DNA from: Tubulanus polymorphus
Lineage: Eukaryota > Animalia > Nemertea
DNA: 64,000 nt
Reading direction: 5' to 3'
Assembly (NCBI RefSeq): GCF_964204645.1
Contig: NC_134025.1
Span: 18,327,101-18,391,100, forward strand
In this document: in pieces, positions 22,095 through 51,062 of the stretch
Position numbering within the stretch: the stretch's first letter is position 1
Layout of the letters: the number at the start of each line of letters is the position of its first letter
Program-made: the position numbers and the translations under genes
The notes under the pieces: model-generated
Told to the model about the DNA's origin: nothing
The model's input: only the letters and a program-made list of their open reading frames with translations
The model's database searches: none

Positions 22095-22149
22095 CAATTC
22101 TACATTGAAAATAAATTAAATAGTCAAATAATTATTGAATTTAGTTAAA

Positions 22150-27513: not shown

Positions 27514-27550
27514 ATAGTGAATTAATCTATTAAAATCTTTTTCTAATTAA

Positions 27551-28524: not shown

Positions 28525-28561
28525 TTAATAAGAAAAAGATTTTAATAGATTAATTCACTAT

Positions 28562-28780: not shown

Positions 28781-28899
28781 TTATTTAAGAAAGAAATTAG
28801 AAAATTAATAAACATTTGCTTGTTTTTATTTAAATATTTTAAAATCATTTTTAAAATATTAAACTTTTAAATGATTAAATCAAATAACAATTAAATTTA

Positions 28900-30068
28900 C
28901 AGCTAAACAATTTATCATTTCAACTGTCAAACAATTTATCATTTCAACTGTCAAACAATTTATCATTTCAACTGTCAAACAATTTATTATTTCAACTGTC
29001 TTATCATTTCAACAGTCGAACAATTTATCATTACAACTGTCAAACATTTTATCATTTCAACTGTCAAATCATTTCAACAGTCGAACAATTTATCATTTCA
29101 ACTGTCAAACAATTTATCATTTCAACTGTCACACAATTTATCATTTCCACAGTCGAACAATTTATAATTTCAACTGTCAAACAATTTATCATTTCAACTG
29201 TCAAACAATTTATCATTTCAACTGCCGAACAATTTATCATTTCAGCAGTCGAACAATTTATCATTTCAACTGTCAAACAATTTATCATTTCAACTGTCAA
29301 AGAATTTATCATTTCAACTGTCAAACAATTTATCATTTCAACTGTCTTATCATTTCAACAGTCGAACAATTTATCATTTCAACTGTCAAACAATTTATCA
29401 TTTCAACTGTCAAACAATTTATCATTTCAACTGTCAAACAATTTATCATTTCAACTGTCAAACAATTTATCATTTCAACTGTCAAATCATTTCAACAGTC
29501 GAACAATTTATCATTTCAACTGTCGAACAATTTATCATTTCAGCTTTCAAACAATTTATCATTTCAACTGTTAAACAATTTATTATTTCAACTGTCAAAT
29601 CATTTCAACAGTCGAACAATTTATCATTTCAACTGTCAAACAATTTATCATTTCAACAGTAGAACAATTTATCATTTCAACTGTCAAACAATTTATCATT
29701 TCAACTGTCAAACAATTTATCATTTCAACTGTTAAACAATTTATCATTTCAACTGTCAAACAATTTATCATTTCAACTGTCAAACCATTTATCATTTCAA
29801 CTGTCAAACAATTTATCATTTCAACATTCGAACAATTTATCATTAAAACTGTCAAACAATTTATCATTTCAACTGTCAAACCATTTATCATTTCAACGGT
29901 CAAACAATTTATCATTTCAACTGTCAAACAATTTATCATTTCAACTGTCAAACAATTTATCATTTCAACAGTCGAACAATTTATCATTTCAACTGTCAAA
30001 CAGTTTATCATTTCAACTGTCAAACAATTTATCATTTTAACAGCCAAACAATTTATCATTTCAACAGT
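28900..30068 (-). repeat. 24-bp tandem array, right-arm copy, ~49 units
   Basis: Reverse complement of the left array with the same end variants. Confidence 0.97.
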
Positions 30069-30142
30069 CTATTAGATATTTAGATCATTTAACTAAATTC
30101 AATAATTATTTGACTATTTAATTTATTTTCAATGTAGAATTG

Positions 30143-30799
30143 TTACTCTTTACACCAGTTTTTATGTTTAATTGTTTGGTAATGCTTTGATTTATGTGAT
30201 TTTGAATATTTACCTCCGCAATAACAATGAATTTTTTCATTAGGATTAAATCTTTTGAATTCATTTTCTAAATCACATTGAATTGCGATATGTTTAAAAG
30301 ATTTATTATTTTCTAAATCACACTGAATTGCAATATCTTTAAAAGAATTATTGTTTTCTAAATCACATTGAATTTCAATATTTGATGTATTTTCATTATA
30401 AATAATTTGTTTATTATCAAAATTACAATAATATAATTGTCGTTTTTCAATTCTTAAGTCTATCCTATCATTACCTTTTGAAAGTATTATATCACTTTCT
30501 CTTTCATTAAAAGGAAATTTAAGAATATTTATTATGTTTTCATCTAAATTACCTTTATAATTTAAAACTGTATTAAATATTTTAGGATTTTTGGCGCCAT
30601 TATCTAAAGTATCTATTAGTTCAGTAATTAAATATGTTTCATTTAATAATATTTGATTAATTATAGTAATATTATCAATTTTATATTGTCTTCCATATAC
30701 TAAATTTGTTGCTGAAATATAATTTCTAATGTTAAACTGTGAAAATGATTTATTGGTTTCATTGATTTCGATTTTGAAGTTGGGTTCTTCTTTCTTCAT
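30143..30799 (-). CDS. Hypothetical protein with 3x IQCDLEN repeat and C-terminal CxCG..H..T.KH zinc finger
   Basis: Open right-arm copy; the finger resembles those at the N-terminus of P1/P2 PolB. Confidence 0.7.
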   Translation of the reverse strand: MKKEEPNFKIEINETNKSFSQFNIRNYISATNLVYGRQYKIDNITIINQILLNETYLITELIDTLDNGAKNPKIFNTVLNYKGNLDENIINILKFPFNERESDIILSKGNDRIDLRIEKRQLYYCNFDNKQIIYNENTSNIEIQCDLENNNSFKDIAIQCDLENNKSFKHIAIQCDLENEFKRFNPNEKIHCYCGGKYSKSHKSKHYQTIKHKNWCKE

Positions 30800-33928: not shown

Positions 33929-34965
33929 TGTCTGAAAAGAGGTTAACAAGACGACGTGGAGGCCATTATGCGGCCGCAGGTAAACTAATTAAAGAGGCAG
34001 ATGCGATTATTGTGACTCAAACCGTTCAAAGACCGGATTTATTGCGTTTAGAAAGAATTTTTCGAGTTTAAATGATCAATTGGATTATATCGCAGTATTG
34101 GACTTGGAGATTTTGGACGCTATCGACGATGATGCGGCATATGAAACCAGTTTTTCAACGTATTCAGACGAACTACTTAAACTTCGAGACAAGCACCTTA
34201 CTTACGGTCAATATGTTTCTGAAAAAACTGCGAAACCGGTGCCACCTACTCCTGGTGATAAATCAAAAGTGCGATTACCTCACTTGTCTTTACCCAAATT
34301 CAGTGGGAAAATTCTAGAATGGGAACAGTTCTGGGACGGTTTTAAGGCTGCGGTGCATGATATTTCGGAAACTCTTATACCTGGGGTGCAGAAATTTCAG
34401 CATTTGCGTAATCAATTGGAAGGTGATGCTAAGAACTGTATTGCGGGTTTATCGTTAACCGCCGCTAATTACACTGCGGCGATAGTACTGTTAAAAGATC
34501 GTTATGGTCAAATTCATAAGATCGTATCTGCTCATCTGAAAGAATTAGTGGACTTACAAGCTCCTGCTGATTCACCATCGAGTTTCCGGACATTTCGTGA
34601 CTCTATAGAGTCTCATATAAGGTCGTTAGACGCGCTTGGTAAAAGTTCTGATTCTTATGGCGATATGTTATCATCTGTAATTCTGCATAAGTTACCGAGA
34701 TCCGAGAGTTAGAAGAAATTTAATTCGTTCTCGCGGAAATAAAGAGTTATCGTTACAGCAATTGCGTGATTTTATGTCGGAGGAACTGGAAATTATGAAT
34801 GCGGGATTAGATTACACTGTAGATGACTCTAGTGAACTTACGGATATTTCTAGTTTACCGGTTTTCGACAATAATCAACAAAACAGCAGTAATAAGTCTA
34901 CGAAGAATCTCAAATGTGGATTATGCGATAAACAACATAAAGTTACCGACTGTAATCTAAACGGG
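33929..34965 (+). pseudogene. gag: BEL gag, 5' part
   Basis: VRLPHLSLPKFSG..WEQFWDGF..QKFQHL..LEGDA..NY..A..LLKDRYG; CGLC..H..C knuckle just before the P2 insertion. Confidence 0.9.
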
Positions 34966-35081
34966 AGTAATTAGAATATGTGGGTTTCATACCAGAGGAC
35001 GAGAGGACGAGACACCACTCATCACCACAAGTAATTTTTTTTTTCCTACTCATCACCACAATTAATTTTTTTTCCTAATAA

Positions 35082-38000
35082 ATGGGGGAGAATGAACACC
35101 AACTAGAAAACAATAATGTCAATAAAAATCAATATTATTGTCAATATTGTAAAAAATACATCGATACATCTAATAAAACACGACATGAAAAAACTGCAAA
35201 TCATATAAAAGATGTAATAGATTTTGAAACTCCAGAAAATTCCAATGAAAGAAAAGAACGATTAGAAAATATGAATGTGAATGAAATAAAATGTAAAGTT
35301 TGTGATGAATTTATAACAAAAAGGAATTATAATAGACATCTCGAAACAGAAAAACACCATCAAAATTTGAGAAATAATGTTTTAGGAATAGATTATTTTG
35401 ATGATAAACCTCAACAAGTAAAAGAATCAACTTCAAAAACTAAATCCATTTCAAATAAACCTTACATGGAAAATGTTAGAAATTATATTGATTCACTAGA
35501 AATAAAAGATACAATTGAAATCTTAGAAACATTACATAGTAAAATTGGTCCTGCAGCTATTATATTTAGATTTTTTAAAGGTACAACAATAGAAGATTAT
35601 AGTAAATTTAATGAAATAATAGAAAAAATACTAGATTTGATAACAGATGTTGAATATCCAAAAATTAGTATCTCTGGGAAAGTAAGTTTTATAAAGTCAG
35701 AAGAAAAAATGAATTATAATATTCAAACACACTCTGAAGAAATAATTTCAAAAACACAAATAAAAGAGAAGTTAGAAAAAATATTAAATGAATTTAAACG
35801 TCATATTGAAGAAAGATATTTTGAGGGTTCTGGCTTAACATTGAATGAAATTATATATTTAGATTTAAATGTTTATAATACAAAAAGGAATAAAACATCA
35901 AAAAGTAATAAAATGTTTAAAAATGATTCAAACTTTACAACAGAAAAGGATATGAAAGCATCAAGTTATATCAAATTACCGTTTACAACAAAAGCAGTAA
36001 TAAATATTCAAAATGAAGATAATAAATGTTTTCTATGGTCAATTATTAGTTGTTTACACCAAACAGAAGATATGACACATAGTTTTAGAATAACAAATTA
36101 CCGGAAATATGAAACATTATATAAAATTGATCAATATCCAGTAACTATAAAAATGATTCCTAAAATAGAAAAAGTTAATAATTTAAAAATAAATGTATTC
36201 GAATTAATGCAATTACCAAAGACAAAAGGTGAAAATATTAAAGATTATACATTGGAAGCTTTATATTTAACAGAATATTATGATGATGAAAATGCTATAG
36301 ATTTGTTATATTATAAAAAAGATGAAAATGAACATTATATGTGGTTAAAACAAATTGATTTATTCTTTAGAACAGAAAGTGATCATCATCGTAAAATTTA
36401 TCTATGTAGAAAATGTTTATCTAAATTTATGACTGAGAATACATTATTAAAACATAAAGAATTATGTGATAATAAAGATTTTTGTAAATTAATAATGCCA
36501 ACAGAAAAAGATTATAAATTGAAATTTACTAATCATAAATTTAAAAATATTGTTCCATTTGTAATTTATGGGGATTTTGAATCGTTGAATAAAGAATTAA
36601 CTGATCAAGATAGAAAAGAAATATATAACAAAAAGCAATTATTAAAATCAATGGATAAAGGAAATGAATTAAATGAAGACACAATACAAGACCCACCAAT
36701 TATAAATACAATTAAAAAAGTTCATCAAAGAGCTGCTGCTTATGGAATTTACATAAAATCAAATTATCCCGAATTATATGAAAGTCAATATATTTCTTTT
36801 AGAGGTGAAAATGTAGTTAATGATTTTTGTGATAAAATTATTGAATTAGAAAGTGATTTTGCAAAATTATTAAACAAAAATAAAAGAATAGTTTTGACAA
36901 AAGAAGATGAAATTGATTTTAATTATGCAACTCATTGTTGTTATTGTGAAAAACGTTTTTATTCATTTGATAAAAGAGTTAGAGATCATAATCATTTAAA
37001 TTCAAAATATCGTGGAGCTGCTCATGAAGATTGCAATTTACAAGCTAAAAAAGTAAATTTTGTACCAATATTATTTCATAATTTATCAGGATATGATACC
37101 CATCTATTTATAAAACAATTATCAGGAAAATTGGGTGCAATTAATCAAGAAATAGAAGAATATAATGCTATGAATGAAGCAAATGTAAGAAAATATGATT
37201 TTAAACTATTAGCTAAAACATCTGAAAATTATATTTCATTTCAATTTGGTTGCATTAGATTTTTAGATTCTTATAGATTTCTAGCAAGTTCATTAGATAA
37301 TTTATCAAAAAGTTTAGTTGATAATGATTTTGTTATAACTCGATATTATTATCCAAATGAACAAGATTTTAAATTATTGAGATATAAAGGCGCAATTCCT
37401 TATTCATTTTATAAAACACATGATGATTTTAATGTAACAGAATTATTAAAAGATCAATTTTATGATAAATTAAAAGAGGAGTATGTGAAAGACGAAGTTT
37501 TTGATAGAACATTAAATATTTGGAACCATTTTAAGATGAAAAATCATGGCGAATTAGTTGATTTATATTTAAAATCAGATGTTATGATATTAGCTGACAT
37601 ATTTGAAAAATTTAGAGAAGTTAATTTGAATCATTTTAATGTTGATCCTTGTTATTGCTACTCTAGTCCTGGTTTAACCTGGCAATGTGGTTTAAAATAT
37701 ACAAATGTAGAATTAGATTTATTAAAAGAACCAGATATGGTTTTATTATTTGAAAAATTAATTAGAGGTGGAATTAGTGGTGTTATGGGAGATAGGTATT
37801 TTAAAGCAAATGATGAATATAAATTATTATATATTGACGCCAATAATTTATATGGTTGGGCAATGATGCAACCTCAACCATATAAAAATTTTATATTAAC
37901 AGAAGTTGAAAATGGTGATAAAACTGATTGGGAAAGCGCAATTATTAGTTTAAAAGATGAAGCACCAATTGGTTATTTCTTTGTAGTTGATTTAGAATAT

Positions 38001-40151
38001 CCTGAAAATATAAAGTTTAAAACAAGAAACTTACCTTATTGCCCAAAACATTTAACTGTAGATGATAGTTATTTAAGTGAATACCAGAAGAAAATAAAAC
38101 CGAAAGATCATGTTTTTACAGAAAAATTAATACTTACTCAAAATAATAAATACAATTATATTGTTCATTATAGAATGTTAAAATTTTATCTAAAACAAGG
38201 AATGAAATTAAAGAAAGTACATAGATATATTGAATTTAATCAATCGAAGTGGTTAGAAAAATATATAGATTTCAATACTCAACAGAGAACCATATCAAAA
38301 ACAGATTTTGAAAAAGATTTTTTCAAATTGATGAACAATAGTTTTTATGGAAAAACTTGTGAGAATATTCGTAATAGAAACGACATTGAATTAGTAAATA
38401 ATTCTGAAAGATTAAGACATTTACAATCAAGTCCTAGACATTTAGGAAATAAAAGATTTGAAGATTATTTAACAGCAGTAAAATTAAAAAGAACGTCAAT
38501 GAAATTTAATAAACCCATTTTCATTGGTTCAACAGTTTTAGAAATATCAAAATTATTAATGTATGATTTTTATTATAATGTATTACAACCCTATTTTGGG
38601 GAAAAGAATATAGAAATTCTGTACTTCGATTCTATAACGGCTGACACCCCAATATTATTAAAATGTAATAATAAAATATTGGTAAGAAGAATTTCAGAAA
38701 TAATTCCAAAACAAAATGAATGTTATATTTCATATGGTGAAAAAGAATTAATACAAATAAATGGATTAATGGATGTTTGGACGAGAAATGGATGGAAAAA
38801 ATTAAAGAATATTATTAGACATAAAACAAATAAGAAAATCTATAGAGTTAGAACTAAATTAGGATTTATAGATTGCACCGGAGATCATAGTTTGATTAAA
38901 CAAAATGGTGATAAAATAAAACCAATTGATATAAAAATTGGAGATGAATTATTACACAACAGATTTTACCCAAGAATGAATCATATGTCATTTGATGAAA
39001 TGATTAATAATATTTGTAATATAGAACCCGAAACATTGGAAGAAAAAGAATATTTTATCAAAGGATTTTTCATGGGTGATGGTTCAGCAGGTGTGTATAA
39101 TTATGTTAGTGGAACTAAATATTGTTGGTATTTATGCAATCAAGACTTAAAATTATTAGAAAGAATTAAGAAATTCTGTGAAGAAGTTTATCGAAATAAA
39201 ACATTCAAAATCATAGATGTTATGAAATCATCAGCAGTTTATAGAATACTTGTAAATAATCCTAAAGATTTTGCTATAGAATATAATGATGAATTCTATA
39301 TTCATGCAATAGTGAAAAGTAATACTTCGACAAAAGAAAAGATAGTTCCAGATTATGTATTAAATGCAAAAAATAATTTAAGAAAATGGTTCTTCATTGG
39401 ATTCTATGCAGCAGATGGTTCAAAAAGTTTCCAAAACCGCAAAACAATATCCTTTGCTCAAAAAGGAAAAGTTGCTATATCAGGATTAGATATTTTATGT
39501 AATTCATTAGGCTTCAATATGAATATTGGATTGATTAAATCTAAACCAAATTGCTTTAATTTAAGCCATGTAGAAAATGAGTTAACTGAAGAAGTTAAAG
39601 ATTTATTTGAAATATATAACCCAACAGATTATGTTTATGATTTATCAACTGAAGATGGTACATTTAACTGTGGATTTCCATTAATAGCCAAAAATACTGA
39701 CGCCTACATACTAAAAATCAAGACAAATGACATCACAAAAGACTTAAAAACATTAAAACATCATTTTGATTTTAGCAATTATCCTAAAGATCATGAACTA
39801 TTTAGCAATGATAATAAAAAGATTCCTGGTAAATTTAAAGATGAATTAGGAGGTGATGAAATGATTGAATTTGTTGGGATAAGAAGTAAAATGTATAGTT
39901 ACAGAACAAAAGATCATGAAGCTAAAAAGTTAAAAGGAATAACAAAACATGTGGTTGATAAACATATAGAATTTCATGATTATATAAAGTGTTTATATAA
40001 ATCAATTGTAATGAAACACAAGATGAATTGTTTAAGATCAGAAGATCATGAGATGTACATTAATGAAGTTGAAAAAACTAGTTTAAATCCATTTGATGAT
40101 AAAAGGCATATTTCAGATGATGGTATAAAAACATTACCTTATGGTTATTAA
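35082..40151 (+). CDS. polB: Protein-primed family B DNA polymerase with N-terminal zinc fingers and an intein
   Basis: 1689-aa open frame; Exo YGDFES, FHNLSGYD, YLKSDV; Pol YIDANNLYGWAM, KLMNNSFYGK, YFD|TD, KMY, FDDKR. Confidence 0.97.
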   Translation: MGENEHQLENNNVNKNQYYCQYCKKYIDTSNKTRHEKTANHIKDVIDFETPENSNERKERLENMNVNEIKCKVCDEFITKRNYNRHLETEKHHQNLRNNVLGIDYFDDKPQQVKESTSKTKSISNKPYMENVRNYIDSLEIKDTIEILETLHSKIGPAAIIFRFFKGTTIEDYSKFNEIIEKILDLITDVEYPKISISGKVSFIKSEEKMNYNIQTHSEEIISKTQIKEKLEKILNEFKRHIEERYFEGSGLTLNEIIYLDLNVYNTKRNKTSKSNKMFKNDSNFTTEKDMKASSYIKLPFTTKAVINIQNEDNKCFLWSIISCLHQTEDMTHSFRITNYRKYETLYKIDQYPVTIKMIPKIEKVNNLKINVFELMQLPKTKGENIKDYTLEALYLTEYYDDENAIDLLYYKKDENEHYMWLKQIDLFFRTESDHHRKIYLCRKCLSKFMTENTLLKHKELCDNKDFCKLIMPTEKDYKLKFTNHKFKNIVPFVIYGDFESLNKELTDQDRKEIYNKKQLLKSMDKGNELNEDTIQDPPIINTIKKVHQRAAAYGIYIKSNYPELYESQYISFRGENVVNDFCDKIIELESDFAKLLNKNKRIVLTKEDEIDFNYATHCCYCEKRFYSFDKRVRDHNHLNSKYRGAAHEDCNLQAKKVNFVPILFHNLSGYDTHLFIKQLSGKLGAINQEIEEYNAMNEANVRKYDFKLLAKTSENYISFQFGCIRFLDSYRFLASSLDNLSKSLVDNDFVITRYYYPNEQDFKLLRYKGAIPYSFYKTHDDFNVTELLKDQFYDKLKEEYVKDEVFDRTLNIWNHFKMKNHGELVDLYLKSDVMILADIFEKFREVNLNHFNVDPCYCYSSPGLTWQCGLKYTNVELDLLKEPDMVLLFEKLIRGGISGVMGDRYFKANDEYKLLYIDANNLYGWAMMQPQPYKNFILTEVENGDKTDWESAIISLKDEAPIGYFFVVDLEYPENIKFKTRNLPYCPKHLTVDDSYLSEYQKKIKPKDHVFTEKLILTQNNKYNYIVHYRMLKFYLKQGMKLKKVHRYIEFNQSKWLEKYIDFNTQQRTISKTDFEKDFFKLMNNSFYGKTCENIRNRNDIELVNNSERLRHLQSSPRHLGNKRFEDYLTAVKLKRTSMKFNKPIFIGSTVLEISKLLMYDFYYNVLQPYFGEKNIEILYFDSITADTPILLKCNNKILVRRISEIIPKQNECYISYGEKELIQINGLMDVWTRNGWKKLKNIIRHKTNKKIYRVRTKLGFIDCTGDHSLIKQNGDKIKPIDIKIGDELLHNRFYPRMNHMSFDEMINNICNIEPETLEEKEYFIKGFFMGDGSAGVYNYVSGTKYCWYLCNQDLKLLERIKKFCEEVYRNKTFKIIDVMKSSAVYRILVNNPKDFAIEYNDEFYIHAIVKSNTSTKEKIVPDYVLNAKNNLRKWFFIGFYAADGSKSFQNRKTISFAQKGKVAISGLDILCNSLGFNMNIGLIKSKPNCFNLSHVENELTEEVKDLFEIYNPTDYVYDLSTEDGTFNCGFPLIAKNTDAYILKIKTNDITKDLKTLKHHFDFSNYPKDHELFSNDNKKIPGKFKDELGGDEMIEFVGIRSKMYSYRTKDHEAKKLKGITKHVVDKHIEFHDYIKCLYKSIVMKHKMNCLRSEDHEMYINEVEKTSLNPFDDKRHISDDGIKTLPYGY
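38631..39695 (+). mobile_element. Intein (355 aa) with LAGLIDADG homing endonuclease
   Basis: Splits motif C as YFD|SITADTPI..VYDLSTEDGTFNCGFPLIAKN|TD; block B DCTGDHSL; LAGLIDADG helices FIKGFFMGDGS and FFIGFYAADGS; absent from P1 PolB. Confidence 0.95.
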
Positions 40152-40166
40152 AATGGATCTATATCA

Positions 40167-41429
40167 TCAAACTTCTTCATTTTCATTTAATTGTTCAGGT
40201 TCTTCTTCCATTCCATTTTTCTCATTTAAATAAAGTTCTATCTTGTTCCACATTTCATCTCGCTCTCTTTGTTTCTTTTTGTTTGTTAATTCATCAAATG
40301 GAATTATGATATCTAGGTTTAAATAATTTACAATCTTATTTAAAAAGAATTCATAATTTATTGAATCTGTTATTCTATTTTCCAAATGATACATTAATAT
40401 TTGTTTAAATATTTTTTTTATATTTTCCATATCTTCTTCTGTTAATTTAGGTTTTTCATAATAATCGTTAAATAATAAATATAAATACATTTTCTTTTGT
40501 TTTGTGTTAAATGTTGGTGGAATAATTGTTTTTATAATATCTTTTTTAGTTATTTCACCATTTTTATTTTCTATTATTTTCATTTTTTCAAGCCATTGCA
40601 TATATTCTGGTGTATGATCTTCTATAGAAAATATTTTAAAAATTTCATCTAGATAATTTAATTTTGGTTCTATGAGAAAATCTCTAGTTTTTTCTTCACC
40701 CCATAAATTCTTTTGCCATCCACATTCAACACAAAATAACACAGTACCTTCTTGCCTTAAGGTCGCATAACTACATTGTGGGCATTTTTGTTTATAATTT
40801 CTTGGTAATAGATCTTCATTAAGCTCTTGGTATTTTCTTACGTTTTCTTTATGTTTTATTGTTCTATTATGTAGATTTGAATTACTTGTTGTAATAATCA
40901 ATTTACAATATTTACAATAATATGTTTTTCTTGTTAATTCATTATATTGTTTTTCTAACTTTCCAACTGTTTCTTTATTATCTGGTAACGTTTTCTCATA
41001 TTTTATTTTTTCTAATAAATTATTTTTTCTTTCATTGAATTCAGTTTCAAATTTATTAGAAATTTTATCTATATGTGCTTTACGAAATTGATGATTCCCC
41101 CAATCTTCTATATTTTCAGGGCTATATTTTACTTGACAAGGCTCACAGAAATGATCTTTTATATTATCCTTATCATAGAATAAGAAAGGTCTTTTCCAAA
41201 TAACTTCAGGTTCAACTTCAGCAGAATTACTATCAACATTAGCCGTTGCGCCATTAATTCTACACTTCTCTGAATGTTTTTTAACATAATTTCTTGAGAA
41301 TAATTTATTACATTTTGGACAGTTTATTTTAGGGGGTTTATAATTTTCATCATGTTTTTTCATATGTCGAGCCTTATTACTTTTTCTTAGAAGTTCACCA
41401 CAAATTTCGCATGCTATCTTCTCATCCAT
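40167..41429 (-). CDS. Zinc-finger protein with C-terminal poxvirus VLTF-3 (A2L)-like domain
   Basis: CPQC..FCVECG..KLNYLDEIF..LTEEDMENIKKIFKQILMYHLEN..SINYEFFLNKI..RDEMWNKI follows my recollection of vaccinia A2L; several N-terminal C2H2-like fingers. Confidence 0.75.
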   Translation of the reverse strand: MDEKIACEICGELLRKSNKARHMKKHDENYKPPKINCPKCNKLFSRNYVKKHSEKCRINGATANVDSNSAEVEPEVIWKRPFLFYDKDNIKDHFCEPCQVKYSPENIEDWGNHQFRKAHIDKISNKFETEFNERKNNLLEKIKYEKTLPDNKETVGKLEKQYNELTRKTYYCKYCKLIITTSNSNLHNRTIKHKENVRKYQELNEDLLPRNYKQKCPQCSYATLRQEGTVLFCVECGWQKNLWGEEKTRDFLIEPKLNYLDEIFKIFSIEDHTPEYMQWLEKMKIIENKNGEITKKDIIKTIIPPTFNTKQKKMYLYLLFNDYYEKPKLTEEDMENIKKIFKQILMYHLENRITDSINYEFFLNKIVNYLNLDIIIPFDELTNKKKQRERDEMWNKIELYLNEKNGMEEEPEQLNENEEV

Positions 41430-41497
41430 TTATTAAGGAAAAATTTTATTAAAATTAATTTTTAGTGATGAGCGGTAATTTTTTTATGTTATAAATA

Positions 41498-42257
41498 ATG
41501 GTAGAATTAAAAGAATACAGAATATTTATTGATTCTAGAAAACTTACAAATTATAAATCTCATAATTTACTAGTACAATTAGATAGAGATTTCAAGAATT
41601 GTGTAGATTTAAAATTAGTTAATATAAGTTTATGTAATTCTTTTTATAATATATCGGATAAAACTATTGAACATAATACTTTTTTAATTCATATTAGAAG
41701 TATAAATAAATGGTTTAATCTATTTCTAAGACCAGGATTATATAATTTAGAAACATTATCTCAAGAAATTAATCGGAGAGCACGATTAAAACTTAAAAGT
41801 GAAGATAAATTTTCAATTAGATTTATAAAAAGCGATAGTTCTGATAAAATTAAAATAAAGTTAGATGATGAAAACAAACATGCATTTATGGTAAAAAAAA
41901 CCTATAGCTAAACTGTTAGGAATTGTACCAGATACTGTTACAGGAAACGTAGAAGGTATTTCAAATATAATACCTTTTACACACTTTTATATTTATTGCA
42001 ATTTAATCGAGCCTACAAAAACATTTGAAGCAACTAAAGATATAACTTGTAATTCTAGTATATTAAATATTTTACCATTGAAGAATGTTAAAGAATTTGG
42101 AACGCAAATAAATTATAATTTAACAGAATGTGATTTCAAACCATGCATTCCTCGTTTTAATAATTTTAGATTAGAAATTAGAAATCATAATGGATACTTA
42201 ATTGATTTAAATAACTTTCCTGTAATTTATGAATTAGTTATAAGATGTAAAGAGTAA
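41498..42257 (+). pseudogene. Minor capsid (penton) protein, frameshift at A-run ~41893-41900
   Basis: IFIDSR..L..NSFYNI..PGLYN..LLGI..YIYCNLI..ILNILP..LEIRNHNG.LIDL pattern of Polinton/PLV pentons. Confidence 0.75.
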
Positions 42258-42273
42258 TTTTTTCACTATATAA

Positions 42274-42615
42274 ATGAATATAACTGTCGGACCGAGTATA
42301 TGTTTTGGATTTGATTTTAAACATGGTAAAGAAATGAGAATTAAACTAAATGACGTAATTACTGATATAAAAAGTAAATCATTTAACAATGCATCAATGA
42401 TTGATAAAGAAAAGTATAATATAGAAAAAGTAATTGATTTAATTAAATCACCTTTAGAATATTATGAATTAAATGAAGATGGAATTATTGATGATATTAA
42501 AAACATATTAACCAAAATATATGATAATCATAAAACTAGTAATAAAATAAATGTTGAATTAATCATAAATAAGTTAACTAAATATTTTGATGATAGTAAT
42601 TTTTTTGATAAATAA
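42274..42615 (+). CDS. Hypothetical protein (113 aa)
   Basis: TAAATG start; homolog relic in P1. Confidence 0.7.
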   Translation: MNITVGPSICFGFDFKHGKEMRIKLNDVITDIKSKSFNNASMIDKEKYNIEKVIDLIKSPLEYYELNEDGIIDDIKNILTKIYDNHKTSNKINVELIINKLTKYFDDSNFFDK

Positions 42616-42837
42616 ATGAGTGATAATAAGTGGATAATAACTGGATTATATAATGGCGCATTACTATCAGTTGGAACTGTTGGTTATTCAATGGTATTAA
42701 AAAAAGTATTCAAAATGGGAAGTGTTAATGTTGATAGATTTGATATAAATGATATTTTAAAGTTAACATTAGCAGTTACTTTATCTAATTTAACAATTGA
42801 TTATTTGGAAAAACAAAAATATATTCCTCCCATATAA
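42616..42837 (+). CDS. Small hydrophobic protein (73 aa)
   Basis: TAAATG start; two hydrophobic helices; conserved in P1. Confidence 0.75.
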   Translation: MSDNKWIITGLYNGALLSVGTVGYSMVLKKVFKMGSVNVDRFDINDILKLTLAVTLSNLTIDYLEKQKYIPPI

Positions 42838-42865
42838 GAAATATGTAATTTTTTTTGCTAAATAA

Positions 42866-43288
42866 ATGGCTTCTGCAATTATAACTATTATAGGATCGGC
42901 AATCGTTAACGCTTTAGCATTTACTGGTGGTGGTTATTTATTTAAACATATTGATAAAAATAGTTCATTAGGAGAACAAAGAAGACATAACTTAGCGTTA
43001 GAGAAATACAATAAAGCTGCAGAAGAATATAGAGAAAAGAGGCAAAACTATGTGGATTACATCAATAAAGAATTATATGATCAGAAGATTTCACATAGAG
43101 ATTTTCAATCAGTTGATGATGCAATGAGTTTATATAACGCAGTAACAAATAAAGAAAAATTACATCTATACAAACCTAAATTATCAGATTATCATACCCC
43201 GAGTAAAGAACAACAGAAATATGAAATAATATGGATTTTAGGTGGAACAGTTATTGTTATATTTGTTGCTTATAAGTTTACTAATTAG
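42866..43288 (+). CDS. Hypothetical membrane protein (140 aa)
   Basis: Hydrophobic N- and C-termini around a coiled coil; TAAATG start. Confidence 0.75.
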   Translation: MASAIITIIGSAIVNALAFTGGGYLFKHIDKNSSLGEQRRHNLALEKYNKAAEEYREKRQNYVDYINKELYDQKISHRDFQSVDDAMSLYNAVTNKEKLHLYKPKLSDYHTPSKEQQKYEIIWILGGTVIVIFVAYKFTN

Positions 43289-43307
43289 TAATTTTTATTC
43301 TAAATAA

Positions 43308-43742
43308 ATGGAAGATAAAGTTGATAATATTGATATTATTCCTCATGATATAAATAAAACTAAATTAAAAACATATTTAGAAAAACAAATATTAGAATTT
43401 GAAAGTGACTTAAAGATAAAAAAGAAAAAATATTTAAAAAGTAAAATTATATATTATTTGATTATAAGTGGTTCGGTTACAATTAGTTCTGTAATAACAT
43501 TTCTAGCAATATTCAGTCCATTAACACCTTTAGCTATATCAATTGGTGTATTAGGATTAAGTTCAAGTGTTTTAACCGGTATAAGTTCAAAATTAAATAT
43601 AAAAAGTAATAAAGAAAAAATTAAAACTAATATAAAAGAAATTAATAAATTAAAGAACACACTAGATTATATAATGAGTTTAAATGGTCATATAACAGTT
43701 GAAGAACAAGATAAATTATTAAAAGAATTAATAAATTATTAA
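43308..43742 (+). CDS. Two-TM coiled-coil protein (144 aa)
   Basis: Central hydrophobic hairpin; TAAATG start. Confidence 0.7.
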   Translation: MEDKVDNIDIIPHDINKTKLKTYLEKQILEFESDLKIKKKKYLKSKIIYYLIISGSVTISSVITFLAIFSPLTPLAISIGVLGLSSSVLTGISSKLNIKSNKEKIKTNIKEINKLKNTLDYIMSLNGHITVEEQDKLLKELINY

Positions 43743-43758
43743 TTTTTTAATTATATAA

Positions 43759-45147
43759 ATGGTAGATAGTTTTCCAAAAGCTTTCCAATATAATAAATCA
43801 ATTAAATATAATATTCCAGCAATAGATTTTAATAAAGATATTACGTATAGAAATGAAGTTTTAAATTCATTAATTGATTTATATATTTATGTTACTGAAA
43901 CTAATAATTTTAATGTAAAGATGGAAAATATATTTCATATATATTTAATTAATTTTAAAAAATTGAAAGATGAAAAACAATGGTTATTAAAATCTAATAT
44001 GAAGTATTGGCAGAATCAATTAAATTTTGCTGTTTATTGTGCAACAACAGGTTGTGGAATTAGTTGGAATGATCATTTAAATAATTCTAAATATAAACTA
44101 ATTCAAAGTTTATTTAGATTTCATACATACTTTCAAATCAGAATAATATTAAATGAATTAGAGTGCGCTTTACCAGGATCTAGATATTTCAAAGAATTAG
44201 ATAATGATATTAATTTATCTAAGTTTTATAAAATTTGCAATGAATTTAATATAGATATAAATAATTCTGATTTTAGAACAAAAATTGGAACAATAAGATC
44301 ACTTCCATGCCCTAGAAAGATTGCAGAATATTGTGCACTTCCCATACCATCTAATAGTTTTTATAATATCTATAATAATAAATTAGGTTATGGTAAAATA
44401 GAAACAAAAGATTTAGAAACATTAAATTTCAATAAATTACCAAAATTTTATGATAATTTAAAACAAGAAAACAATAATGGTTGGGTATATTTCATTTTAG
44501 AGAATAGTGAAGGTTTTACTAAATCAGGTATAGAAAGAATAAATCAATCTATTAGAACTTATTTGATTTGTATTCTAGGATCACTAGTTGAAACAAGATC
44601 ACCGATAATTGGAAATTTGAATACATCATTCGATACACAGAAACAGTTTAAAGTTTTATTTGAAGATTCAATTCATAATGATAAAAATAGATCGATTCCA
44701 GAAAACATTATAAGATATCAAAATTATTTAGATAAATCTCATGTAAGACTTAATTATTGTATAGGCCCTAATCTATTAATTATTTCTAATGATTTAGTAT
44801 TGAAGATGGGAAATATAATTGGTTATAATAATCTAATTAAAACTGCAACAATAAATAATTCATTTGGATTAAATGATATAAATAAAAAGATTATTACTGC
44901 TCCAAAATTAATGGAAGGTGAAAAAAATAAAAAACATATTCAATCAACAGAAACTAAAACTAAAAATATCAAATTAAATAATGATTCCAAAATAAAAGAT
45001 TACAATACATCAGAAAATATAAAAACTGATAAAATTCAACATGATATAATTAAAACTGATAATGATAATAAATCCCATGAAAATACTAAATTAGCTATAA
45101 CTTGTATAGGAATTGTAATCGGAGGAATATTATATTTTAAATTTTAA
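43759..45147 (+). CDS. Hypothetical Polinton protein with C-terminal TM anchor (462 aa)
   Basis: Long open frame; YWQNQLNFAVYCATTGCGIS; TAAATG start. Confidence 0.8.
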   Translation: MVDSFPKAFQYNKSIKYNIPAIDFNKDITYRNEVLNSLIDLYIYVTETNNFNVKMENIFHIYLINFKKLKDEKQWLLKSNMKYWQNQLNFAVYCATTGCGISWNDHLNNSKYKLIQSLFRFHTYFQIRIILNELECALPGSRYFKELDNDINLSKFYKICNEFNIDINNSDFRTKIGTIRSLPCPRKIAEYCALPIPSNSFYNIYNNKLGYGKIETKDLETLNFNKLPKFYDNLKQENNNGWVYFILENSEGFTKSGIERINQSIRTYLICILGSLVETRSPIIGNLNTSFDTQKQFKVLFEDSIHNDKNRSIPENIIRYQNYLDKSHVRLNYCIGPNLLIISNDLVLKMGNIIGYNNLIKTATINNSFGLNDINKKIITAPKLMEGEKNKKHIQSTETKTKNIKLNNDSKIKDYNTSENIKTDKIQHDIIKTDNDNKSHENTKLAITCIGIVIGGILYFKF

Positions 45148-45163
45148 TTTTTTTATTATGTAA

Positions 45164-46609
45164 ATGGATGTAGAAGGTGGAGAAAATATTCCATTGGATG
45201 ACATGGGAAATGATAATGAAGGATATATTGATGATGAACCACAAACCGATTTTAATAAAACTAATATTGATAATGATGATGAATCAGCATATAATTCTAA
45301 TTTAACTACACCTCAATATATTGACAAAGCACGTTCAAAGATAAGTATTGAAAATGAAGTACCAGAAATAACAGAAAAAGAATACAATTATAATGAAATT
45401 ATTCATGAATTTAAACCAATATTAAAAAAATCTGGTTTCAATATAACAAATAAAGGTATGGATTATTTAGTAAAAGATTTAAAATATTTAAATGGTGATT
45501 ATTATTGGAAATTGAAAGGCGACTATTATTTTAAGATTTCAGATCTTAAAACTAGCGATAAAATAATAATACAATCAACCGCTAATTTATTAGAACAATC
45601 TAGAATTAAGAAAATCATTGATGATGTTATAACTGATGTTACACAAGAAGAAAGAATTGTTAATTTAAAAGAATTTAAACAAAGAAATGCTAAATTTTTT
45701 GATATAATTAATGCAAATTTAGAAACAGAAACAACTTCTGAACAGAATATAACTTCCAAAACTAGTAAACCTAATTCAAGCGAAGTTCAAACTGAAAAAC
45801 TTTTACCGAAGGGATTACTTGATGCAACAAATCAACAATTAGAAGATTTAGATATATTTTCTGATAAAGCAATAAGAGAAATTGTTAGTATAAGACTTGC
45901 ATCTGAAAAAATTGCATATTATAAAAGTATAAGAGATCAAAAAATTAGAACTTTAGAAAAAGAATTAACTGATAAAAATAAAGAAATAGAACAATTAAAG
46001 TCTGATTTAGATCATCAAGTAATTGATGAAATAGAATATAAACAAAAAGAATTACGTTTAGAAAAAGAAATAGATGATTTAAAATATAACAAAGAATTAC
46101 AAAAAGAAGAAAGAGATACATTGTTAAAATCATATGATTATAATATTAATAGATTAAAAGTTATTTTTAAAGATTTGTTGATTAAACCAAATTCTGAAAT
46201 ATCACTAAAAGACAGAATAAGATTATTATTTAAATTAGAAGGAATAACAATTCTTTCAATTCTAACAGCTGTAACTATGTTATTTACAACAATTGGTTTA
46301 GCAATATCAAATGCTTTAAAATCTACTCCTACTCCCACTCCCAATAAACCAGATAAACCTCCAGGAAATAATTCTATACAAGATAAAGTTAAAGATGGTT
46401 TAAAGAAATTAGCAAAATATTTATGGGAACTATCTAAAAAATCTGCTGCAGCTTTACCAGGAGTTATTGCTTCAATTGTTGGTTTTATATTGAAATCTGC
46501 AGGAAACATTATTAACTTTGCTGCTGAACATATTATTTTATTTTTAATTACAGTTGTAAGTGCTATTATTTTTGGGTTAGTGAATATGATATCAAAAAAT
46601 ATCAAGTAA
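45164..46609 (+). CDS. Coiled-coil protein with C-terminal hydrophobic helices (481 aa)
   Basis: Long open frame; acidic N-terminus, coiled coil, TM segments; TAAATG start. Confidence 0.8.
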   Translation: MDVEGGENIPLDDMGNDNEGYIDDEPQTDFNKTNIDNDDESAYNSNLTTPQYIDKARSKISIENEVPEITEKEYNYNEIIHEFKPILKKSGFNITNKGMDYLVKDLKYLNGDYYWKLKGDYYFKISDLKTSDKIIIQSTANLLEQSRIKKIIDDVITDVTQEERIVNLKEFKQRNAKFFDIINANLETETTSEQNITSKTSKPNSSEVQTEKLLPKGLLDATNQQLEDLDIFSDKAIREIVSIRLASEKIAYYKSIRDQKIRTLEKELTDKNKEIEQLKSDLDHQVIDEIEYKQKELRLEKEIDDLKYNKELQKEERDTLLKSYDYNINRLKVIFKDLLIKPNSEISLKDRIRLLFKLEGITILSILTAVTMLFTTIGLAISNALKSTPTPTPNKPDKPPGNNSIQDKVKDGLKKLAKYLWELSKKSAAALPGVIASIVGFILKSAGNIINFAAEHIILFLITVVSAIIFGLVNMISKNIK

Positions 46610-46680
46610 ACCATGATATCAAAAAATATCAAGTAAACCATGATATCAAAAAATAAATAATTAATTTTTTTGTTAAATAA

Positions 46681-47930
46681 ATGAGTGGGAGTTATATAAG
46701 TCCTTCCACGAATCATAGAATATCTAATGCTATTAAAGCAGAAAGATCACATCATATAATTACTCATAATCCTTCAAATATTAATCCCGATGAAACTTTA
46801 TACGTTAGAATCCCTCGATTAACACAAAATACTTTTTATGTTCCAAATAGTATTTATTTATCGGCCGATATAAAAGTAATCGGTAATAATAATAATTATG
46901 TTGTCGATAATGTTGGAAGATATTTGATTAAAAAGTTAACAATAAAGATTGGTCCAGAAACAGTTTTCTCATTAGATGATTATAATTTATTTATGCATTA
47001 TAAAGATTTATGGTTAACTAAAGAAAATAGAAATAATATGATATTTCAAGGAATCCAATCAGAAAACCATAATAAATTAAGATCTGAAGCCAATAACGCA
47101 GTAGTAAATAATGGCGTAGATAATTTGATTAAAAAGATTTATGGAAGTAAATATAAAATTCCATTAGACTTTGAATTGATAAATAATAATGCACCTTTAT
47201 ATAAATACGCAATTCAAGAAGATATTATATTTGAGATAACATTTGCTCCTGTAAATGAAATTGTATTATCTAGCGTTGTTAAAGATATGGGTTATAAATT
47301 ATCGAATATATGTTTAGAATATAACACAGTAACTAATGAAAATATTGCTAGCGCACAATTCAAACTCAATACAATCAAGGATTTTCATTATTATATGATT
47401 ATATTGATAAATTTAAAACTGTAACTATTAATGCAAATGATGAAATAATTAATGAGAATATTAACTTCCCAAGAAGATCTATTAAAGGTATATTAATATT
47501 TTTTACTATTGCAACATATTCTAATGGTGCAATAAATGTTGATAATTATTATAATCCTGAAATAACAAAAGTAGAAATAACTATCGAAGGAATAGCGAAT
47601 AAAATATTTTGCCAAGGAATGAGAATGATTGATCAATGGCCAGAAATTAAAAAACATTTTATGAATGAAAAAGTAAAATCATTTGAAAATTGTAATATTA
47701 ATCAAATTGATTATTATACCGGTAATAAATATGCATTATGGTTAGATTTTAGAACAACTAAAGATAATTCATTACATGGTTCTGGGAAAAAACTACAGAA
47801 CACTAAAGATGGAATACAATTATTTATGAAAAAGAATAAAGGAATCAAAAATTTTAAAATGCACATTTATATTATATCTGACGCGCAATTAAATATTGTA
47901 AATTCACAATTAGATAGTATTCAATATTAG
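46681..47930 (+). pseudogene. Major capsid protein (putative double jelly roll), frameshift near 47355
   Basis: ~415 aa beta-rich when joined; HNPSNINPDETLYVRIP, YKIPLDF, YKLSNICLEY, FPRRSIKGIL, YALWLDFR; located next to integrase and ATPase. Confidence 0.7.
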
Positions 47931-47960
47931 AAATATAAAGTTAAAATTAAGGATATATAA

Positions 47961-48663
47961 ATGAGTGGTAAAAAAACTCCTAATACTAAAGAACAATATT
48001 TAAGAAATTTATATTACAACCCTGAGAGTTCGGTTGCTTATTCTTCTACTAAAAATATATGGCGTAAAGTAAAACAAGATAAATTAGATAAGATAATCCC
48101 ACAAAATTTAGTTAAATATAAAGATATAAATGAATTTATGTTAGAACAACCAACATATACAACACATAAAAAAATTGTTAGAAAATATAAAACTCGTAAA
48201 ACTATGGTAAGTTATGTAGATCAACAGTGGCAAGGAGATTTAATTGATATGAAAAATCTTAAAAAAGATAATAATGATTAATTTATATGGAGCATTTCTT
48301 GTAGATGATTTTGGTGAACCTAAATTTAAAGTTGGTCAAAATGTTAGAATTTCTAAGTATAAAAAGATATTTGACAAAGGATACGATCGAAATTTTACTA
48401 GAGAAATATATAAAATAAAAAAGGTAATAACAACAAAACCATATGTCTATAAATTAGAAGATTTAGATGGTGAAGAAGTTGATGGTTACTTTTACGAAGA
48501 AGAATTAAGTTTAACTACTGAAAATCTAGAACAAGAATATAAAATTGAAAAAGTATTAAAAACAAAAACTATTAAAAGAAAAAAATATTCTTTAGTAAAA
48601 TGGGTTGGATGGCCAGATAAATTCAATGAATGGATATTATCAAGTAAAATTAAAAATATATAA
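47961..48663 (+). pseudogene. Integrase with the catalytic core deleted
   Basis: LYYNP..YTTHK..QWQGDLIDM joins directly to NLYGAF..KFKVGQNVRISK..chromodomain LVKWVGWPDKFNEW; the IDIFSRY/DEGKEF/ERFN segment seen in P1 is absent. Confidence 0.88.
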
Positions 48664-49272
48664 ATGAATAAAGAATTATTTATATTTGAGCCTCATAATA
48701 TGTTAATTTCTGGTGTAACAAATTGTGGAAAAACTTATTTTATATTAAATTTATTAGAAACTGTTTATGAAAACTATTTTGATAATATAGTATTATTTTG
48801 TCCAACATATGAATTTAATCAAACTTATGATAGAAACATTACTAGAAATAATAAATTTATTATATTAGATCCTAAAACAGTAAAAGAAAATTTAGATAAT
48901 TGTATAAAAATAGCAATTGATATTTATAAAGGATCAAATACATTATTTATCATAGATGATTGTGCTAATCTACATGATTCAAAAGTTAGAGAAAGTGAGT
49001 TATGTTATTTAGCTTTCTCTGGCAGACATTTTGGGATAACAACTTGGGTTTTAAATCAAAAATATAATTCAATTGTTAAAGACTTTAGAGAAAACATTAG
49101 ATTTCTAGTTTTATTCTACAATAAAGATAGAAAATCGATGAAAAATGCACTTGAGGAAAATGATATTATTCCACATGATTTACATAATGAATATATGGAT
49201 GAGTTGAAAAATATTAAAAGATCAAAATTACTATTTAGATTACAACACCCATTTAAATATGAATTTATTTAA
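48664..49272 (+). CDS. DNA packaging ATPase (A32/FtsK-like)
   Basis: GVTNCGKT, FIIDD, SGRH, LNQ; intact 202 aa. Confidence 0.92.
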   Translation: MNKELFIFEPHNMLISGVTNCGKTYFILNLLETVYENYFDNIVLFCPTYEFNQTYDRNITRNNKFIILDPKTVKENLDNCIKIAIDIYKGSNTLFIIDDCANLHDSKVRESELCYLAFSGRHFGITTWVLNQKYNSIVKDFRENIRFLVLFYNKDRKSMKNALEENDIIPHDLHNEYMDELKNIKRSKLLFRLQHPFKYEFI

Positions 49273-49530
49273 ATTCAATTAGTTTGTTAATCTAGTTGAA
49301 TTCTAGTTATTGGTAGTTGTAACAAAAATCAAATAGATTTAACAATATTTTAACTAGCTTGTTAATCTAGTTTAATTCTAGTTATATTCTAGTTGAATTC
49401 TAGTTGTTAGTAGTTGAAACAAAAATCAACTAGATTTAACAAGAAATAAACAAAAACAATAATATTTCAACTAGCTTGTTAATCTAGTTGAATTCTAGTT
49501 ACATTCTAGTTAAATTCTAGTTGCAACATC
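49273..49530. repeat. TCTAGTT / AACTAG-rich repeat block of P2
   Basis: Repeated GTTAATCTAGTTGAATTCTAGTT units; the largest non-coding gap in P2. Confidence 0.8.
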
Positions 49531-49556
49531 ACACAACTAATTTTTTTATTATAAAA

Positions 49557-50162
49557 ATGGGAGGTGAAAAGAAAATAAAATCTAAAAATGGTGATGTTCC
49601 AATTGAAAAAACTTTAGATGATTTAGGAATAACAGAAAACAAATTAATTCCAGATGATGGTGCTTTAAATAATGTTACAACAAATAATAATTATGAATAT
49701 TATCTTTATTGTAAACATCAATTAGAAATATTAATAGCATCTGGAAAATGTAAAAATTTTGTCGGTAAAAATTTAACTTATAATGAATTAGATACAATGA
49801 AATCAGTTGAAATTATTAGATTATTTAAGATTTATGAAGCCGCGAGAACAGCTAAAATTAATGACGCGATATCAGAAAATGTAGTAAAAGGTTATAGTAA
49901 ATTATGTAATTATATACTACCAATTGAAGATGAAAATAGATTATATTCCGATTTAAAAAATGACTATTTAGTTATGACTGAATTAAATAAATGGATTGGA
50001 TATTTATCATTTCAATTAGGTGGATTTATGACATTATTATCAACTGGGGTTATAACATTTTCAAATATTGAAAGTAAAAATATTTCTATAATAAATGAGC
50101 GAGGTGAAAGAAGTGAAGGAATTAACTGTGAAGAAAAAACCGAGAACTCAGAAACAAATTGA
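49557..50162 (+). CDS. Conserved hypothetical protein
   Basis: Homolog of 15999-16586; ATG at 49557 preferred over the TTG start in the track. Confidence 0.75.
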   Translation: MGGEKKIKSKNGDVPIEKTLDDLGITENKLIPDDGALNNVTTNNNYEYYLYCKHQLEILIASGKCKNFVGKNLTYNELDTMKSVEIIRLFKIYEAARTAKINDAISENVVKGYSKLCNYILPIEDENRLYSDLKNDYLVMTELNKWIGYLSFQLGGFMTLLSTGVITFSNIESKNISIINERGERSEGINCEEKTENSETN

Positions 50163-50466
50163 ATGGTCTCGACAATTAGGAATTAAATCACAAGAATATA
50201 AAAAAGCTGTAAAAGAAAAAATAAGTAATAAAAATGTTAATAAAAATGGTGAAAATATTGTTATTTCTACTCCTTCTGATAGTAGAATATTTGATAAATA
50301 TTTATATTTTACATTTGGATTTGTAATTGTATTCATTTTGATTGGGTATAATTGGTATAAGAAATCAAATAAAATTCATGATATTAGTAGTAATTCTGAA
50401 CCAACTGCTATCAAAAATGAAAGTACTTCTGAAATTCCAAAATTGATAATAAAAAAAATGGATTAA
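50095..50466 (+). CDS. Small single-TM protein
   Basis: TAAATG start; homolog of 16579-16920. Confidence 0.7.
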   Translation: MSEVKEVKELTVKKKPRTQKQIEWSRQLGIKSQEYKKAVKEKISNKNVNKNGENIVISTPSDSRIFDKYLYFTFGFVIVFILIGYNWYKKSNKIHDISSNSEPTAIKNESTSEIPKLIIKKMD

Positions 50467-50613
50467 TAGAAATAATGAATATCTCACTACTTTTGTCTAT
50501 CACTGTGTGGGTGCTGTTTATGGCACCATCTATGTGGAGCAATTAAATTGTCCAGATAAGTCATTTCGGATTCTAGATATTCATTATTTCTATTAATTTA
50601 TTTTTTTTTAAAT

Positions 50614-50940
50614 TTAATCAACAATTTCTAAATCATGATGACCGTCTTCATTTTTCCCATGATATATTATTTTAAATCCTACTAAATCTTTCAATTCCTC
50701 CGTACTCAATGAAACCCATTTATCGGGTAAAAACACTTTAAATTCTCGCGATGTACTAACATTACAGTAGCTTAAATTAGCTGATACTTTCTCTCCATAT
50801 TTAGTTTTTATCTTTTCTAATTTCAATATTTTATGTTCAATTTCTTTTGTAACATCAACTAACTTTTTTATTTCAAATTGTTTTTTTGCTGGTTTTATTC
50901 TGTTATTTATTGTTGCTAAGAATGCTTTTCTATCTCCCAT
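50614..50940 (-). CDS. 108-aa terminal protein of unknown function
   Basis: Starts inside the right TIR at TAAATG; KIKTKYGEKV..VFLP; its 5' half is copied in both palindrome arms. Confidence 0.75.
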   Translation of the reverse strand: MGDRKAFLATINNRIKPAKKQFEIKKLVDVTKEIEHKILKLEKIKTKYGEKVSANLSYCNVSTSREFKVFLPDKWVSLSTEELKDLVGFKIIYHGKNEDGHHDLEIVD

Positions 50941-51062
50941 TTATTAGGAAAAAAAATTACTTGTGGTGATGAGTGTTAGGAAAAAAATTACTTGTGGTGA
51001 TGAGTGGTGTCTCGTCCTCTCGTCCTCTGGTATGAAACCCACATATTCTAATTACTAACGGG

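Follow-up and report, generated by a model that had tools for sequence, protein, structure and literature searches.

The window examined here is a stretch of 64,000 nucleotides from the nemertean Tubulanus polymorphus (contig NC_134025.1, positions 18,327,101 to 18,391,100, forward strand). It contains a Polinton-type element, P2, in which nearly every gene begins at a shared motif of about 20 bases that ends in TAAATG and overlaps the start codon. Positions are those of the window, and the features are collected in Table 1. P2 is inserted in a BEL/Pao retrotransposon, and the flanks have 33 to 45% GC versus about 24% within the element. Retrotransposons mark the host as animal, and the closest BEL/Pao clusters hint weakly at arthropods. 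Its limits match the contigs of run X1, one of which ends at 34966 and another of which begins at 51057. Because reads of the same species label (90% identity) cover P2 about 4 to 20 times as deeply as the flanking retrotransposon, P2 represents a multicopy family. Polintons, also called Mavericks, as a rule have terminal inverted repeats, AG...CT ends, and a 6-bp target duplication. The P2 family has the terminal repeats and the 6-bp duplication together with a protein-primed family-B DNA polymerase (pPolB), an integrase of the retroviral type, an A32-like ATPase, and a double jelly-roll capsid. Elsewhere in the window, the host flank carries a 510-bp inverted repeat pair (95% identical, with a 277-bp spacer) at 8503-9799.

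Metagenomic relatives of P2 are present on contigs L001 to L004, which count as three genotypes because L002 and L003 are near-identical. L001 has intact capsid and integrase genes; the P2 copy is damaged in three genes, with the frames of the capsid and putative minor capsid genes split and the core of the integrase gone. Profile searches, in which several open reading frames (ORFs) received no assignment, gave no match to an adenain-like maturation protease among the P2 or L001 proteins and detected no RNA polymerase subunit among those of P2. P2 has the core features of a Polinton but lacks a detectable protease, which is a criterion of the canonical adintoviruses and group 1 Mavericks. An intact relative of the major capsid protein, P0001, is 77% identical to the first P2 capsid piece, and its structure model (pLDDT 84) is a double jelly-roll that matches the capsids of PBCV-1, iridoviruses, and virophages, with those of Mavirus and Sputnik ranking below the large-virus capsids. 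By way of this modeled relative, the P2 major capsid protein is predicted to be of the double jelly-roll type. With no protease detected and a capsid that ranks closer to those of large viruses, P2 falls outside the virophage taxon Virophaviricetes and may live like a virophage. The gene at 41498 is one that we take to encode the minor capsid protein from its N-terminal pattern; the conserved 254-aa candidate in L001 for a single jelly-roll minor capsid gave no Pfam or PHROG match. A structure model of the 462-aa P2 protein was unusable (pLDDT 29). The product of 43308-43742 bears a weak likeness to the SLATT domain, with two membrane helices (E=0.0025, short of the cutoff), and this region is also conserved in L001, and 49273-49530 is a 284-bp intergenic stretch of short CTAGTT/AACTAG repeats. 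Three of the 18 P2 ORFs of at least 70 aa were set aside, one (46138-46716) as antisense and two (47619 and 48274) as inner pieces of broken genes.

Table 1. Features of P2 and of the related elements in the window
Feature	Position	Strand	Remarks
P2, Polinton-type element	34966..51056	.	16.1 kb, 23.6% GC, ends AGTAATT...AATTACT
Left target-site duplication	34960..34965	.	AACGGG
Right target-site duplication	51057..51062	.	AACGGG
Left terminal inverted repeat	34966..35089	+	124 bp, 94% identical to right; contains polymerase start motif
Right terminal inverted repeat	50933..51056	-	contains start motif of 108-aa gene
pPolB	35082..40151	+	1689 aa, open frame; PF03175 E=1e-17 on part before intein
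Intein	38631..39695	+	355 aa, LAGLIDADG domain, inserted in YFD/TD motif of pPolB
420-aa protein	40167..41429	-	N-terminal zinc fingers, zinc ribbon, probable VLTF3 (A2-like) domain at 40215-40814
CTCATCAC box	41465..41472	-	ahead of VLTF3-like gene
Putative minor capsid gene	41498..42257	+	two frames, break near 41900; no profile match
Major capsid gene	46681..47930	+	two frames, break near 47350-47420
Integrase with chromodomain	47961..48663	+	catalytic core missing in P2 copy; PF00665 found in relative L001, which P2 copy matches
A32-like packaging ATPase	48664..49272	+	PF04665 E=2.5e-13
Start motif, pPolB	35063..35084	+	T-run class; no co-directional element gene upstream
Start motif, VLTF3-like gene	41427..41448	-	
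Variant start motif TAAATAATG, putative minor capsid gene	41479..41500	+	only one of 15 under matrix threshold
Start motif, 113-aa gene	42255..42276	+	occupies entire 16-bp gap
Start motif, 73-aa gene	42597..42618	+	within upstream coding sequence
Start motif, 140-aa gene	42847..42868	+	
Start motif, 144-aa gene	43289..43310	+	
Start motif, 462-aa gene	43740..43761	+	occupies 16-bp gap
Start motif, 481-aa gene	45145..45166	+	occupies 16-bp gap
Start motif, major capsid gene	46662..46683	+	
Start motif, integrase	47942..47963	+	A-rich core class
Start motif, packaging ATPase	48645..48666	+	A-rich core class; within integrase coding end
Variant start motif TAAAAATG, 201-aa gene	49538..49559	+	
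Start motif, 123-aa gene	50076..50097	+	A-rich core class; within upstream coding sequence
Start motif, 108-aa gene	50938..50959	-	within right terminal repeat
P1, decayed P2 relative	10980..20230	.	limits approximate; polymerase without intein, integrase, ATPase, minor capsid
Non-autonomous palindromic element	20861..31391	.	same family, separate; target duplication ACTGAG

TAAATG lies over the start codon of 13 of the 15 P2 genes, compared with 35 of the 618 other ATGs in the element (Fisher p=5e-14); none of the three ORFs set aside has it, so that including them would give 13 of 18. A longer form, TAATTTTT, stands upstream of 11 of the 15 starts versus 2 of the 618 other ATGs. The whole signal spans about 20 bases, with T, A, and A at −19 to −17 (in 13, 14, and 13 of the 15 starts), T at −16 to −10 (at −14 in all 15 and at −13 in 14), then A or T, and then TAAATG. 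The T run ends 5 to 9 nt before TAAAT, most often 6, and three genes (47961, 48664, and 50095) have an A-rich core without a T run. Where TAAATG is missing, a close variant takes its place, TAAATAATG at 41498 and TAAAAATG at 49557. A leave-one-out matrix scores 14 of the 15 starts higher than the 99th percentile for 615 other ATGs. Scored on its upstream part only, the motif still tells the 13 true starts (lowest score, −1.4) apart from other TAAATG sites (highest, −3.1; p=7e-8). Counts of TTTTTNT were left unused, as they reflect the A-rich coding strand. Eight of the 11 co-directional junctions measure 0 to 30 bp, the others being 71 bp, 284 bp, and one overlap, and three 16-bp gaps consist solely of the motif. 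No TATAWAW was found at −60 to −10 of any of the 15 genes, and there is no poly(A) hexamer within 150 nt downstream of the ATPase gene. The start motif of P2 is real, and these counts confirm and strengthen the original observation. An initial annotation, made from the window alone, had named 13 start sites in P2 and seven in its neighbors, all of which do carry TAAATG. It had also described a T run 7 to 8 nt upstream, which is present at most starts but at a more variable and typically shorter distance and not at the A-rich genes, and intergenic gaps of often 0 to 30 bp, which holds for most junctions but not all.

Three other origins of the motif were rejected. Its TAA doubles as the stop of the upstream ORF in only 2 of 13 cases, and the motif is therefore not a stop-start artifact. 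A splice acceptor was discarded because no P2 start has AG ahead of the ATG, and a poly(A) signal as the sole cause was discarded because AATAAA, found within the motif at 8 of the 15 starts, is absent at the other 7.

The motif extends to the relatives of P2. The neighboring P1 carries it at 14977, 15999, 17758, 19287(-), and 20056(-), and the palindromic element carries it at 27295, 27551, 28524(-), 28780(-), and 31311(-). The latter element is 10.5 kb long and has ends of the family type; a 24-bp unit is repeated in tandem over kilobases of it, and small ORFs follow the P2-type motif. On L001 to L004, TAAATG is present at 24 of 26 ORF starts, 15 of the 26 having it with the T core. Orthologous starts of P2 and L001 are 73% identical over −20 to −1 versus 39% further upstream; because nonorthologous start pairs also show 65% versus 33 to 34%, one motif is common to different genes. 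Control sets scored in the same way gave TAAATG at 7 of 68 starts in eight other pPolB-bearing contigs (0 of 68 with the T core), 0 of 8 in two distant relatives, 10 of 86 in 18 giant-virus bins (4 selection sites removed), and 24 of 324 in 57 other viral loci (18 selection sites removed). The conserved core seen at −19 to −12 of the P2 starts is missing from AT-rich control sets. Scans of viral contigs with the P2 ATPase and capsid as queries found no relatives. In L005 (1262-1294), which is distantly related and has a capsid of the same family, the capsid gene starts at TATATAAAATG, in a differing context that includes TATATA, and a 4.3-kb Polinton-like viral contig (L056) has a T run with TAAATG or close variants at several starts. 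L001 also carries a deoxynucleoside kinase gene behind a P2-type motif (10340-10981, minus strand), which pointed to no named virus.

The ORF at 40167-41429 probably encodes a VLTF3 (vaccinia A2-like) late transcription factor, an assignment that is new here. PF04947 (Pox_VLTF3) matches its C-terminal fragments of 129, 200, and 215 aa with 26.7 to 26.9 bits against a cutoff of 25; Pfam scans did not list it for the 287-aa or full-length form. The alignment stays co-linear between the zinc ribbon and the final helix, with 22 to 24% identity to non-iridovirus members. In pairwise comparisons with four VLTF3 proteins from outside the iridoviruses, none of 500 shuffles scored as high (z of 4.8 to 9.8). 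A local profile built from 18 VLTF3 proteins scored the domain no better than shuffles, and hhalign gave a weak match (E=0.016, probability 2.8). In reads of the same species label, the gene is covered about as deeply as the polymerase gene. The profile searches detected no VLTF2 or PCNA-like partner among the P2 proteins. To our knowledge, chloroviruses and prasinoviruses have VLTF3 and no RNA polymerase, and we likewise know of none in mriyaviruses. A table and a reference title identify vaccinia A2 as a late transcription factor, and the accessible parts of the literature place VLTF3 in mriyaviruses, in some Polinton-like clusters, and in the key to a figure of a MELD virus. Ahead of the VLTF3-like gene is an CTCATCAC box, which occurs five times in P2 (0.13 expected), at 35018, 35049, 41472(-), 50973(-), and 51004(-); four of the five are terminal-repeat copies. 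It possibly marks a second expression class. The box was not seen at the gene starts of L001 to L004, contigs that are missing the ends of those genes.

The P2 polymerase is interrupted by an intein that includes a homing endonuclease, and the P1 polymerase has an empty site. The closest inteins are those of other Polinton-type polymerases (61%, 46%, and 41%), followed by inteins of family-B polymerases from metagenomes (87 hits) that share the insertion site and family. One metagenomic carrier clusters with the polymerase encoded by L217, an iridovirus-related contig, and the intein tree resolved no donor. The pPolB intein, also new here, has relatives among the inteins of large-virus-type polymerases. 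The accessible text of PMC11161782 mentions insertions of homing endonucleases into polinton polymerases.

The start motif resembles a known class of viral promoter. In vaccinia, transcription initiates within TAAAT and a 5' A leader is added. According to the available sections of the sources, vaccinia late promoters have TAAAT over the start codon, a T that is conserved 10 nt upstream amid further Ts (PMC11980589), and a spacer of 5 to 7 bp (PMC5294985, section 6), and annotations of salmon gill poxvirus and of an entomopoxvirus likewise show TAAATG. Ten bases upstream of TAAAT, at −13, T is present in 12 of 13 cases in P2 and 18 of 25 in its relatives. The ATG inside the presumed initiator, the missing TATA box, the short gaps, and the single class for every gene together suit an RNA polymerase of a large virus. 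We suggest, as a proposition whose chances we see as evenly balanced, that P2 lives in the manner of a virophage, its genes being transcribed by a large DNA virus that serves as helper. The signal of about 20 bases would work like the late promoters of large cytoplasmic DNA viruses and would be read by the RNA polymerase of the co-infecting helper, with transcripts starting within TAAAT and presumably gaining a nontemplated 5' A leader as in vaccinia. P2 would be silent until the helper infects the cell and would then be expressed late, and its VLTF3-like protein would probably help by drawing the late machinery of the helper to the P2 promoters. We also count in favor of this proposal that all P2 genes, including those for the polymerase and the VLTF3-like protein, share one motif class, that no RNA polymerase subunit was detected, that P2 differs from its flanks in GC content, that an intein carrier groups with L217, and that L001 encodes a deoxynucleoside kinase. 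The helper may be pox-like, iridovirus-related, or of unknown kind. A more specific version, in which this clade of animal Polintons comprises provirophages of a poxvirus-like helper, has a poxvirus late promoter ahead of every gene, and uses its own VLTF3 to capture the late transcription machinery of that helper, appears rather doubtful.

Several observations weigh against a helper, or against naming one. None was identified: no contig among the 120 motif-scan loci (38 of 64 parts scanned) has two exact matches. The comparison with poxviruses was made against published descriptions rather than poxvirus DNA, and a scan with MSV199-domain proteins, aimed at entomopoxviruses, returned nothing recognizable as a poxvirus. 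The VLTF3-like domain is closer to its non-iridovirus homologs than to four iridovirus-related ones, which gave z of −0.2 to 2.3. Wiseana iridescent virus (L127, L149, and L155-L169) has TAAATG, in the form AATAAATG, at 55 of 134 starts. Since iridoviruses share TAAATG, the hexamer names no helper, and it is not poxvirus specific. The poxvirus match made in the initial annotation accordingly stands for the overlap of TAAAT with the ATG and for the T at the 10th base but not as a diagnostic of poxviruses, TAAATG being found in iridoviruses and other large-virus contigs as well. The T core is present in only 11 of the 55 Wiseana starts, T occurs at −13 in 36%, and AA at −5/−4 and A at −9 are near invariant. 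There, AATAAATG and the early-like AAAATTGA are nearly exclusive (early-like in 2 of 55 versus 44 of 79 starts), and AATAAATG looks like a late-class signal, one that is not described in the accessible part of a 2017 review. Contigs L145/L147, which encode an Rpb5 subunit and which we take from their gene content to be iridovirus related, have TAAATG at 17 of 47 starts, 7 with the T core; these counts are biased upward because L145 derives from a contig first found by motif scan. The T core fits poxviruses best, fits some iridovirus-related metagenomic viruses in part, and does not fit the classic insect iridoviruses.

The probable VLTF3 encoded by P2 itself makes a helper-free model possible, which the initial annotation, in proposing helper-dependent expression, had not considered; dependence on a helper is still the best reading. 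In such a model, P2 is a nuclear virus whose polymerase and VLTF3-like genes are read by host polymerase II via the CTCATCAC box, after which the VLTF3-like protein recruits the same polymerase to the other genes at their TAAATG promoters. This model is the main rival, which we regard as possible though on balance unlikely. The box is confined to the upstream regions of three genes (those for the polymerase, the VLTF3-like protein, and the 108-aa protein), as would suit a first wave of expression without a helper; the VLTF3-like gene, with a read depth similar to that of the polymerase, is the element's own; and P2 encodes an integrase, which points to a nuclear phase. VLTF3 is found in some Polinton-like viruses and in mriyaviruses, which are small viruses that carry both VLTF2 and VLTF3, according to the accessible parts of the sources. 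However, the ATG inside the presumed initiator leaves no leader, no TATA box lies upstream, and gaps of 0 to 30 bp are too small for 3' ends of the polymerase II kind. The motif persists in P1, which gave no VLTF3 match but is incomplete. Four of the five boxes exist as copies in the terminal repeats, with none seen in L001 to L004, where those gene ends are lacking, and neither a VLTF2 nor a PCNA-like partner was detected.

Two further explanations do without a viral promoter in current use. The motif may serve translation initiation, polyadenylation, or splicing, with the genes being cut out of longer transcripts. It is locked to the ATG, it includes AATAAA at 8 of 15 starts, and AT-rich genes of invertebrates commonly have A at −1 to −3 of the start. 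Nevertheless, it is also present at three genes with no co-directional gene upstream (35082, 41429, and 50940), 7 of the 15 starts are without AATAAA and none has AG before the ATG, TAA is the upstream stop in just 2 of 13, and the core conserved 12 to 19 nt upstream is absent from AT-rich control sets, all of which makes this explanation improbable. We think equally little of the idea that the motif was left over from a former virophage stage, or else is an AT-rich promoter of independent origin whose likeness to the poxvirus consensus is convergent, with some unknown factor reading it today. The P2 copy is indeed broken in three genes, the motif is built solely of A and T, and L005, with the same capsid family, uses another context. 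However, three metagenomic genotypes with diverged flanks, including L001 with its intact capsid and integrase, have retained the motif, and it is kept even inside coding sequence, which argues for current or recent selection on it.

How animal Polintons are expressed and spread is an open question on which the P2 motif bears; the accessible text of a 2026 preprint states that no virions of these elements have been observed so far. Among protists, sharing a promoter with a giant virus is the accepted sign of virophage life. P2 shows this sign in an animal genome: almost all of its genes carry the 20-base motif, and one encodes a candidate late factor. Either dependence on a helper or a self-made switch would explain how such elements turn on, and if the poxvirus provirophage reading were true, the animal would have inherited an infection-triggered parasite of poxviruses. 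Virophage-like promoter use in an animal Polinton, combined with a candidate late factor, appears to be new, and the interpretation as a whole is partly supported. We found no report of a large-virus late promoter for an animal Polinton in the literature covered, to which subscription papers do not belong and on which supplements may bear.

Among known systems, poxvirus late promoters (PMC11980589, PMC5294985, PMC4542343, PMC3061580), as described in the available sections, are like the P2 motif in the overlap of TAAAT with the ATG, the T about 10 nt upstream amid other Ts, and the spacer of 5 to 7 bp. P2 differs from poxviruses in that it is integrated, measures 16 kb, and gave no match to an RNA polymerase, and in its extra TAA at −19 to −17. 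Invertebrate iridoviruses share TAAATG starts with P2 but without the T core. Promoter sharing with a helper is established in protists for Mavirus, Sputnik, and Gezel-14T, with extensive use of the late promoter of the helper by Mavirus and Sputnik, and is also known for a pacmanvirus transpoviron, according to the parts of the sources at hand. The Mavirus/EMALE-CroV and Sputnik-mimivirus systems (PMC8547959, 10.1101/2022.07.28.501842) resemble P2, in the text available, in being small, AT rich, and integrating, with a double jelly-roll capsid and one motif upstream of genes; in contrast, P2 has an animal host, another motif, no detected protease, no identified helper, and a VLTF3-like gene of its own. 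Polinton-like viruses were found by co-purification in entomopoxvirus occlusion bodies (Barth et al. 2024, PMC11296320). They resemble P2 in being Polinton-related elements of animals, and they are linked to a poxvirus helper; the accessible text of that paper gives no promoter analysis, with 0 occurrences of the word "promoter." The word is also absent from the accessible text of three sources on animal Polintons, Mavericks, and adintoviruses (PMC8502044, PMC11131425, 10.64898/2026.06.19.733378). These elements, as described there, share with P2 the pPolB, integrase, A32 ATPase, capsid, repeats, and 6-bp duplication, whereas P2, in which no adenain protease was detected, is set apart from them by the intein in its pPolB and by its VLTF3-like gene.

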